Of a stretch of 15,054 nt of DNA, positions 13,554 through 14,722 are shown piece after piece. The number at the start of each line of letters is the position of its first letter. The first letter of the stretch is position 1. Origin of the DNA: a virus (taxonomy: Duplodnaviria; Heunggongvirae; Uroviricota; Caudoviricetes); the IMG/VR virus record IMGVR_UViG_2657244961_000003, positions 1 through 15,054 of that record. One strand, given 5' to 3'. The translations under genes were made by a program, and so were the position numbers. The notes under the pieces are model-generated. The model was not told the DNA's origin. It ran no database searches and saw nothing but the letters and a program-made list of their open reading frames with translations.

Positions 13554-14258
13554 ATGTTGAACCGAAGAACATTTAATGTATTCTGCGATGAATCCTGTCA
13601 CCTACTAAATGATCATAATAAAGTCATGGTATTGGGTGCGCTTTGGTGTCCTGGCACTATCACAAAAAAAATTGCTAGAGACATCAAGGGATTAAAATTA
13701 AAACACAATTTAAAACCTGATTTCGAAATCAAGTGGACTAAAGTATCTGCGTCCAAAGTTGAATTTTACTTAGAGGTCGTAGATTACTTCTTCAGCAACC
13801 CAGCATTGCGCTTTAGAGGTGTTGTTGTTCCTGATAAAGAGCAACTGGACCATGCTCGATTCCATCAAGATCACAATACTTTCTATTATAAGATGTTTTT
13901 TTATGTCTTAAAAAACATAATAGAAAGTAACAACACATACAATATCTACCTAGATATAAAAGATACTTTAGGTATTGAAAAAATTGAGAAATTAAGAGGA
14001 GTTCTTCACAATGATCGCTATGATTACAATCATGAGTCGATAAACAGAATTCAACATATACGATCTCATGAAGTGCAACAATTGCAGCTAACGGATCTTT
14101 TCATTGGTGCGTTAGGCTACGTTCATCGAGGAATGAATAGCAACGCGGGAAAAATCCAAGTCATAAACAGGATAAAATCACATACAAACAGGGAGTTACT
14201 AAAAAGCACTCTTCCAACAGAAAGTAAATTTAATATTTTCGTGTGGGAGGCTCGCTGA
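13554..14258 (+). CDS. DUF3800-like protein (234 aa): N-terminal DES motif (FCDES) and C-terminal QxxD motif (QLTD)
   Basis: ORF track; GGAG Shine-Dalgarno about 6 nt upstream; length and the two motifs match my recollection of the Pfam DUF3800 description (DES and QxxD, proteins of about 215-273 aa). Visibly AT-rich coding sequence, unlike the flanking genes. No search run. Confidence 0.7.
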   Translation: MLNRRTFNVFCDESCHLLNDHNKVMVLGALWCPGTITKKIARDIKGLKLKHNLKPDFEIKWTKVSASKVEFYLEVVDYFFSNPALRFRGVVVPDKEQLDHARFHQDHNTFYYKMFFYVLKNIIESNNTYNIYLDIKDTLGIEKIEKLRGVLHNDRYDYNHESINRIQHIRSHEVQQLQLTDLFIGALGYVHRGMNSNAGKIQVINRIKSHTNRELLKSTLPTESKFNIFVWEAR

Positions 14259-14722
14259 TGCTTCAAATGCCAGATTTATTGTACTTCAATGGAAGTTGGC
14301 AAGAGTATATAGACGATGTATATGATGTTGTTAGAGAAGATATTTTAATCTCTAATATAACGTTTAAGGGTCTCCCTGTTCGATTACGTTATTCACCGGA
14401 ATATGATGGGAAAGAGTTCGGATTTTGGCATTTAGTATCAGAGGGAAAAATAGAAGAAGAACGAATACCTGATCTTGAACGGTGTAAGCGGATCCGCTGG
14501 ATCGCGCATATGATAAGGAATTATGACCATTGCGATATATCATGTTGGTCTGAAAGACGAGGACCAACTGAAGAGTGGGTAATCTGGAACGAGTGTGAAA
14601 ACTACGTTGTTGTGCTATCCGCACGTAGAGACTATTGGCTTCTCAAAACAGCCTATGTTGTAACCTATGACAGTAAAATCAGAACACTCAAACAAAGCAG
14701 AAAAAGAGCACTTGGGACATAA
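14258..14722 (+). CDS. Hypothetical partner protein (154 aa from ATG 14258; ORF track starts at GTG 14243), translationally coupled to the DUF3800-like gene
   Basis: ATG overlaps the upstream TGA (TGATG) and is preceded by GGGAGG at 14245-14250, about 8 nt upstream; same AT-rich composition; no family recognised (MLQMPDLLYFNGSWQEYIDDVYDVV...). Confidence 0.65.
   Translation: MLQMPDLLYFNGSWQEYIDDVYDVVREDILISNITFKGLPVRLRYSPEYDGKEFGFWHLVSEGKIEEERIPDLERCKRIRWIAHMIRNYDHCDISCWSERRGPTEEWVIWNECENYVVVLSARRDYWLLKTAYVVTYDSKIRTLKQSRKRALGT

Follow-up and report, generated by a model that had tools for sequence, protein, structure and literature searches.

This report concerns two overlapping genes at positions 13554–14722 of a 15,054-nt stretch of viral DNA (IMG/VR record IMGVR_UViG_2657244961_000003, Caudoviricetes; the whole analyzed stretch is referred to below as the window). 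As judged from nucleotide identity, these genes are rlfA and rlfB of phage P1 (rapA and rapB of P7), and the window is part of a P1-like phage-plasmid. The pair is best read as a self-contained, horizontally acquired cargo cassette, which occupies a variable slot of P1-like elements and most likely serves as an anti-phage or anti-mobile-element module, the candidate system PDC-M04. The probability of this reading is put at about 0.5. The evidence fits an origin in bacterial defence islands and a single capture by the P1 lineage as exchangeable cargo.

The assignment to PDC-M04 was based on comparison of both proteins with the models of PADLOC-DB v2. RlfA was matched over nearly its full length by the PDC-M04A model PDLC04353 (E = 2.2e-95, 316.5 bits), while RlfB was matched by twelve PDC-M04B models (best PDLC04355, E = 3.5e-51). 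These model matches, together with the adjacent location of the genes on the same strand with a 1-nt overlap, define the assignment, which was made without applying the system-calling rules of PADLOC. A first-pass annotation, prepared from the sequence alone, had been unable to place the pair in any named system and had considered it undescribed. It turned out that the genes had already been named in both P1 and P7, and that their products belong to an already named system, PDC-M04, which is itself only a prediction.

The PDC series goes back to Payne et al. 2024 (bioRxiv 10.1101/2024.01.29.577857), a “guilt-by-embedding” study in which 145 cassettes embedded in BREX, DISARM or type I restriction-modification (R-M) operons were proposed as untried phage defence candidates. 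In the supplement of this preprint, cassette CAS_00034 (FAM_00014>>FAM_00043; count 679) carries the remark “Assign as candidate PDC-M04”. In the literature searched, the name PDC-M04 was found only in that supplement and not in main texts. The window pair resembles PDC-M04 in that the A and B models match adjacent genes of one strand, and the embedding of its homologs in type I R-M operons agrees with the source study. It differs in being borne by a phage-plasmid and located outside an R-M operon. Thus, the named genes and a catalogued candidate system were already known; new in the present analysis are the connection of the P1 gene names with PDC-M04, the assignment of folds, the finding that pairing is near-obligate and the counts for embedding in R-M operons.

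The DNA region 13390–14800 shows 97.3% nucleotide identity to P1 (over 1411 nt), 98.6% to P7 and 99.9% to phage JL22, and 100% identical copies are present on several P1-like plasmids of Escherichia coli. Synteny with P1 is retained with respect to the position of the pair after repL, the operator Op55 and the gene overlap. The window copy is therefore an allele of the P1 genes, with no substantive difference. The elements of the pair itself are as follows:

13554–14258, plus strand: rlfA (PDC-M04A), encoding a 234-aa DUF3800 protein with the DES motif at residues 12–14 and QLTD at residues 178–181
14245–14250, plus strand: Shine-Dalgarno sequence GGGAGG of rlfB, located in the 3′ end of rlfA, 7 nt before the ATG at 14258 (sequence reading)
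14258–14722, plus strand: rlfB (PDC-M04B), encoding a 154-aa protein without a Pfam family
14730–14761, no strand assigned: hairpin with a 14-bp stem directly 3′ of rlfB, called on the minus strand, with a T-run, by a terminator scan

The TGA codon of rlfA (14256–14258) and the ATG codon of rlfB (14258–14260) have one base in common, giving the sequence TGATG. An in-frame GTG at 14243, upstream of this ATG, is the mechanical start of the rlfB open reading frame (ORF), and rlfA is preceded by a GGAG sequence of its own (13545–13548). Both the TGATG overlap and the GGGAGG motif inside the end of the first gene were thus read where the first-pass annotation had placed them, as were FCDES near the N-terminus of RlfA (residues 10–14) and QLTD near its C-terminus. 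The T-run of the hairpin is weak on the plus strand (sequence reading), and the structure is a terminator-like element common to rlfB and a convergent transcription unit downstream.

Analysis of the base composition showed that the pair has a GC content of 36.8% (35.2% for rlfA and 39.1% for rlfB; GC at third codon positions 0.33–0.35), compared to 46.5% for the whole window and 46.9% for the morphogenesis block (1432–10125). The 400-nt windows covering the pair range from 33 to 39%, and the minimum of the entire stretch (33.0%) falls at 13601–14000. The AT-richness pointed out earlier is therefore real, and the pair includes the lowest-GC stretch of the window, but the contrast amounts to about 10 percentage points rather than the approximately 20 that had been estimated (28–35% versus about 52%).

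The distribution of the pair was examined by a scan of one genome per species with an RlfA alignment. At least 565 relatives were confirmed, and the best 80 loci, to which the following counts refer, were analyzed. These loci span Bacteroidota, several proteobacterial classes, Chloroflexota, Nitrospirota, Verrucomicrobiota, Planctomycetota, Acidobacteriota and others. An RlfB homolog is encoded directly downstream on the same strand in 78 of the 80 loci (RlfB hidden Markov model, E = 1e-25 to 1e-73), with the two genes overlapping or separated by no more than 17 nt in 78/80. A start codon for the second gene is present at a 4-nt ATGA overlap in 26 of the 78 loci and at a 1-nt TGATG overlap in 16. 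This arrangement recurs in homologous loci, and the coupling seen in the window copy is therefore not accidental.

The two loci without RlfB are a contig that ends 485 nt past rlfA and a Sulfurimonas metagenome-assembled genome (locus L049, rlfA at 7989–8687). The latter is the only assessable RlfA-clade locus lacking an RlfB homolog. In this case a 328-aa ORF begins 101 nt downstream of rlfA, within a type I R-M operon, and it may encode an alternative partner.

The genomic context of the pair was then compared between loci, with HsdR, HsdM and HsdS seeds taken from Pfam-annotated loci and used in phmmer searches. Type I hsd genes were identified within 8 kb in at least 36 of the 80 loci, almost always on the same strand. 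The pair either separates hsdS from hsdR or closes the hsd operon at its 3′ end, and Pfam-annotated examples of such operons exist. Among 60 large neighbours in the remaining 44 loci, there were six type III Mod and four type III Res proteins, three DUF1156 methyltransferases, three PLD helicases, and TIR/STAND proteins. MazE-PIN also occurs among the neighbours of homologous pairs, and one pair is carried by an integrase island of Cronobacter. Two features that the first-pass annotation had proposed to tabulate are therefore borne out: the genes are co-localized in 78/80 loci, and their homologs show a strong association with defence loci (type I and type III R-M, a DISARM-like helicase with Cas13a, satellites and integrative islands).

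Several individual loci deserve separate description. In L010 (3321–8471), an RlfA-like domain is fused at residues 1327–1555 (E = 2.7e-51) to a 1556-aa N6-methyltransferase/Eco57I-type protein; the aspartate of its DES motif is replaced by asparagine (CNESWH). The gene order of this locus is DISARM-like MZB helicase, methyltransferase fusion and RlfB homolog, and the region is flanked by two cas13a genes. In L002–L004 (chromosome of Citrobacter werkmanii; P4-like satellite), a RhuM-domain gene is located directly upstream of the pair and a gene for a SymE toxin downstream. In a preprint, a RhuM-domain candidate, PDC-S05, is reported to be active against T4, T5 and T7. In L016 (5470–8214; also in L026, Algoriphagus pacificus), a 502-aa RVT_1 reverse transcriptase is encoded directly upstream of the DUF3800–RlfB pair within a type I R-M operon; the gene for a Piwi-domain protein follows just downstream of hsdR. 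The reverse transcriptase beside the pair recalls the RT–DUF3800 arrangement of type VII retrons.

In viruses the family is rare: a pattern-based scan of 2.9 million viral contigs, of limited sensitivity, revealed 17 loci with an RlfB relative, 14 of which are P1-like.

The location of homologous pairs between hsdS and hsdR is reminiscent of prrC. PrrC/EcoprrI is an anticodon nuclease whose gene lies inside a type Ic R-M operon. It provides the closest functional analogy, and the pair may likewise have an RNase component. The pair is not a PrrC-type anticodon nuclease, since it has neither the ABC-ATPase nor the PrrC nuclease domain, consists of two genes and, in the window, is located outside an hsd operon. 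Dependence on an R-M partner, as in the PrrC type, was likewise rejected as a general mechanism: the enterobacterial and P1 copies stand alone. Since many copies, including that of the window, are stand-alone, an R-M partner is probably not required.

RlfA was assigned to the Pfam family DUF3800 (PF12686) with a score of 53.1 bits (cutoff 21), covering profile positions 1–148 of 149, and contains both the DES and the QxxD motif, as had been anticipated for the first gene. In an alignment of 46 homologs, residues D12, E13, S14 and D181 are invariant and Q178 is nearly so; D134 and D137 are also invariant. The structure model built from this 46-sequence alignment is confident (mean predicted local distance difference test score, pLDDT, 88.8) and adopts an RNase HII/H2-like fold, i.e. 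the RNase H-like (type 2) fold that characterizes DUF3800 members, in agreement with the RNase H2-like fold published for DUF3800. In the model, D12–E13 and D134 are located at the ends of predicted strands, and the arrangement of D12, E13, D134, D137 and D181 would be as expected for an active site of the RNase H type.

The DE motif is flanked by a further group of conserved residues, the invariant C15, H16 and C32 together with a nearly invariant C11, and these may form a metal-binding cluster. To our knowledge, such a Cys/His cluster has not been described for RNase HII. RlfA also differs from RNase HII/RNase H2A in its motifs (DES…QxxD) and in the lack of detectable sequence similarity: comparison of the RlfA profile with E. 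coli RnhB using hhalign gave a probability of 0.1%, and a search of PDB sequences with the RlfA profile returned nothing meaningful. RNase HII is a housekeeping enzyme, whereas rlfAB is mobile and linked to defence. Identification of RlfA as a housekeeping RNase HII (rnhB family) was rejected because there was no match to Pfam RNase_HII or to PDB sequences.

DUF3800 proteins recur as effectors of type VII retrons, as accessories of Cas12a2/Cas12a3 and type VI-F CRISPR loci, and as partners of eleven structured RNAs. With the type VII retrons, which consist of a reverse transcriptase, a non-coding RNA and a DUF3800 effector, the pair has in common a DUF3800 RNase H2-like protein with an N-terminal DE motif. 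The retron-associated proteins lack the Q of QxxD, while RlfA retains QLTD, and the partner in the present case is RlfB. A type VII retron was rejected for the window, where no Rfam family was found at gathering threshold and the upstream genes are kilA and repL. No reverse transcriptase was found in the family scans made; the ORFs at 1–9000 were only partly identified, and that part was not searched for reverse transcriptases. DUF3800 RNA motifs (DUF3800-I to XI) were not detected in the window at E values up to 1, nor at gathering threshold in 20 RlfA-clade loci. The TPR-DUF3800 accessories of Cas12a2/Cas12a3 and type VI-F loci share the RNase H-fold DUF3800 domain and the immune context, but RlfA lacks TPR and has a dedicated small partner, and the window contains neither cas genes nor a CRISPR array; this identification was also rejected.

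In contrast to RlfA, RlfB has no Pfam family, and no consistent family was found over 57 homologs, of which one matches PBECR3 at E = 0.06 only. NCBIfam contains no family for either protein. Sequence searches of PDB with RlfB profiles built from 33 and 57 sequences returned nothing meaningful. The RlfB model is confident (pLDDT 91.9) and comprises N-terminal helices, a four-stranded antiparallel sheet and a C-terminal helix, an alpha/beta fold that weakly resembles the RNases RelE, YoeB, HigB, colicin D and CdiA-CT (BECR). A Foldseek comparison with PDB gave no significant match (best: a de novo design, E = 0.086; HigB1, E = 0.1; colicin D, E = 0.57), and the BECR/RelE-like reading of the model is proposed as a lead only. 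Invariant positions among the 57 homologs are P5, F56, H58 and R75; R69, R78, W81 and W97 are almost invariant. As a lead for further work, this pattern would be in keeping with an RNase that is metal-independent or with an RNA-binding site. The invariant histidine and conserved arginines are typical of BECR toxins; RlfB is approximately 60 residues longer than these, and its conserved residues are located mainly in the helical part.

At 50% identity, the RlfB family comprises approximately 1,750 clusters in a protein library of 1.84 billion entries, and its members are almost all stand-alone proteins of 150–190 aa. RlfB is less conserved than RlfA in all 78 paired loci, with a median identity to the window proteins of 37%, compared to 52% for RlfA.

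These observations bear on a rival explanation, a toxin-antitoxin (TA)-like addiction or stabilization cassette without a direct anti-phage role, in which RlfB would be a toxin of the RelE/colicin D type held in check by RlfA (or the reverse) and the cassette would stabilize its carrier operon, island or plasmid. The near-constant association of two small overlapping genes, the weak resemblance of RlfB to RelE, YoeB, HigB, colicin D and CdiA-CT toxins and the presence of MazE-PIN and SymE near homologous pairs are in line with this explanation, as is a hok toxin gene in the same slot of other P1-like plasmids. However, the upstream partner is a highly conserved 234-aa enzyme with intact acidic motifs rather than a small, labile DNA-binding antitoxin, and the toxin-fold evidence for RlfB is weak. 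P1 already carries phd-doc, which is listed among conserved P1-like genes in published comparisons. Moreover, the explanation overlaps with a defence role, since many TA modules are abortive-infection systems. An addiction cassette is thus rather unlikely, although it ranks first among the three rivals considered here. A canonical type II TA system (RelE/ParE) was rejected: neither RlfB nor its 57 homologs match a Pfam toxin family, and the upstream gene encodes an RNase H-like enzyme.

The immediate surroundings of the pair in the window, for which the P1 gene, operator and promoter assignments were transferred from GenBank record AF234172, are as follows:

11710–12510: kilA, with KilA-N and ANT domains
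12540–13385, plus strand: repL, the P1 lytic replication initiator, containing oriL (AF234172 annotation transfer; PHROG 2418)
13389–13405, plus strand: C1 repressor operator Orlf (formerly Op55), ATTGCTCTAATTATAAC, identical to P1 51575–51591 and located 4 nt past the repL stop codon
13499–13527, plus strand: predicted sigma-70 promoter PrlfA (−35 TTGCAA, 17-nt spacer, −10 GACAAT), a prediction of the P1 record, sequence identical in the window

The cassette had been located by the first-pass annotation at the accessory end of a prophage, beside prophage regulatory genes and adjoining an antirepressor-like gene. The element is, however, a phage-plasmid and not an integrated prophage, the actual neighbours are the lytic replicon kilA–repL, and kilA lies two genes upstream, with repL as the immediate upstream gene. 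What did find support is the view of the pair as independently acquired cargo, with which its low GC content and its location in a documented variable slot of P1-like plasmids are consistent.

This accessory status is supported by several lines of evidence. Among 5,426 complete E. coli genomes, P1-type repL was detected in 509–517 and rlfAB in 116–121; hence, approximately 23% of the genomes with P1-type repL carry the pair and approximately 77% do not. Comparison of rlfAB-positive and -negative elements revealed that homology breaks about 14 nt past the repL stop codon (window position ~13399), so that repL forms the left edge of the variable slot. Published comparisons count rlfA–rlfB–pmgF among the eight variable regions of low GC content in P1-like plasmids and describe replacements of it. 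In a genome-wide CRISPR interference screen, the efficiency of plating was 1.3 and 0.88 for rlfA/rlfB, and the genes were scored as non-essential for P1 plating; this is weak evidence, since repL was also scored as non-essential in the same screen. The pair is dispensable for P1-type elements.

In rlfAB-negative elements (L013, L014 and L015), the slot between repL and bplB contains a small ORF, a hokD toxin gene and IS421 in one set, while another set carries genes for a ParA-family protein, a DUF3892 protein and a 198-aa hypothetical protein. These alternative contents may also represent accessory or defence-type cassettes.

In the 2004 annotation of the P1 genome, rlfA and rlfB were described as “possibly associated with lytic replication”, a label derived from their position only. 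A corresponding rival explanation may be formulated, according to which RNase H-like RlfA would process the transcript or R-loop of oriL (within repL) into primers, or remove it, with RlfB as a cofactor. The location of the pair directly downstream of kilA–repL/oriL on the same strand, with a C1 operator tying the region to the lytic switch, speaks for this explanation, as does the induction of rlfA and rlfB together with repL during P1vir infection. In addition, an RNase HII-like fold would suit processing of RNA:DNA hybrids next to a transcription-activated origin. On the other hand, no RepL homolog was found near any of the 80 non-P1 RlfA loci, whose conserved context consists of R-M and defence operons and not of replicons; most P1-type replicons lack the pair, with unrelated cargo in the slot; the low GC content marks it as foreign to the replicon; and knock-down of either gene leaves P1 plating unchanged, with the caveat given above. 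Since the pair is dispensable and RepL is absent from every other context, the replication explanation is contradicted and must be considered improbable.

The regulation of the pair was inspected in the 168-nt intergenic region between repL and rlfA. It differs from that of P1 by a dozen or so substitutions overall, with the operator and the predicted promoter identical. Orlf lies 94 nt upstream of the −35 box of the predicted PrlfA and does not overlap it; C1 would therefore not occlude this promoter. A consensus promoter scan of the window did not recover PrlfA.

The same phage context is the basis of the least probable of the three rivals, a role in counter-defence or competition during lytic growth of P1, in which the nuclease would be directed against nucleic acids of host immunity (retron msDNA, guide RNAs or signalling RNAs) or against intermediates in the replication of competing elements. 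The pair is phage-borne and adjoins early lytic genes under C1 control, an RNase H-like enzyme could conceivably attack the RNA-DNA hybrid parts of retron msDNA, and DUF3800 proteins are associated with retrons and 11 non-coding RNA motifs. Nevertheless, members of the family reside overwhelmingly on chromosomes, inside defence operons of the host; apart from P1-like elements, very few viral contigs encode them, and most of the P1-like elements do without rlfAB. Such a role is therefore very unlikely.

The reading of the pair as a defence module is favoured by the strong PDC-M04A/B matches, the conserved pairing, the embedding in R-M operons and occurrence at other defence loci, the lower conservation of RlfB than of RlfA, the accessory status and the rarity in non-P1 viral contigs, as well as by the published ties of DUF3800 to defence in the type VII retron and CRISPR-associated contexts named above. 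Several points weigh against it. The PDCs are predictions that have been treated as unvalidated in later work, and, while some of them were active when tried, others showed no activity. The literature searched yielded no paper tying P1 rlfAB to defence or to PDC-M04. The Hsd counts were obtained by phmmer with few seeds, and the survey of neighbours covered large ORFs only. On RlfA, the catalytic tetrad of RNase H could not be located by sequence comparison (hhalign against E. coli RNase HII). Finally, the position of the pair downstream of a C1-controlled lytic replicon, with a C1 operator in front, and its induction by P1vir may indicate a function in the lytic phase rather than in the lysogen.

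From the features directly supported by the analyses (gene anatomy, families, RNase HII-like fold, conserved pairing, R-M/defence embedding and dispensability for P1-type elements), a mode of action may be proposed that extends to complex formation, substrates, trigger, division of labour and a protective phenotype. RlfA and RlfB would be translated together from a coupled message and function as a complex. The conserved effector would be RlfA, a metal-dependent RNase HII-like nuclease, with RNA:DNA hybrids, ribonucleotide-containing or structured nucleic acids as substrates, e.g. an invader's replication primers or R-loops. The faster-evolving RlfB would act as sensor, as regulator or as a second nuclease subunit, possibly an RNA binder or cleaver of the RelE/colicin D type. 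Upon infection, the complex would destroy replication intermediates of the invader or cellular RNA, and the infection would be blocked or aborted, which would shield both the host and the resident P1 plasmid.

A more specific proposal is that RlfAB represents an autonomous immune module with a new mechanism, in which an RNase HII-like DUF3800 nuclease acts on RNA:DNA hybrids of the invader or on cellular nucleic acids under the control of a fast-evolving BECR-like partner. This is conceivable and is put forward tentatively. If it were true, RlfB would correspond, at the protein level, to the eleven “DUF3800 RNA motifs” and to the retron and Cas12a2/Cas13 contexts, and with phage P1 the entire DUF3800 family would gain a convenient model in E. 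coli.

Irrespective of the mechanism, one clade of DUF3800 proteins nearly always travels with a small, Pfam-less partner, mostly in R-M operons. One copy resides in phage P1, a textbook phage, where the labels “replication-linked”, “replication protein” and “oxidoreductase” are misleading. A long-catalogued candidate is thus now approachable in E. coli with existing P1 genetics, and provides a tractable entry point to the DUF3800 family, though one that will not surprise a specialist. If the pair should prove inactive, it would simply be a known accessory cassette of P1-like plasmids.

The analysis also corrects annotations that have spread to RefSeq and PHROGs. RlfB is named “oxidoreductase” or “replication protein” in RefSeq and “replication protein” in PHROG 16230 (phrog_16230), and an automatic name of RepL is “MarR family transcriptional regulator”. 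Both names of RlfB were rejected, as no supporting evidence was found for them, and they were probably carried over from earlier annotation. No evidence supporting this name of RepL was found either.

Upstream of the lytic replicon, a complete copy of IS1 (10333–11103), 99.6% identical to that of P1 and containing an InsB-type DDE_Tnp_IS1 ORF (10582–11085), is inserted between pmgC and kilA. At this site P1 carries simCBA, c4, icd and ant; the window lacks these immunity-I genes, except for a likely 3′ remnant of ant. C4 RNA had no Rfam match in the window, and none was found by Rfam in 20 related loci. The kilA operator Op53 is intact (11624–11640).

At the other end of the window, homology to P1-like plasmids stops at approximately position 14995. 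The last ~62 nt (14993–15054) are 100% matched in hundreds of unrelated plasmids, and in the one plasmid examined this sequence overlaps the 5′ end of a recombinase-family gene located beside blaTEM-1. This suggests that a transposon junction lies immediately 3′ of rlfB, at the position taken by pmgF in P1.

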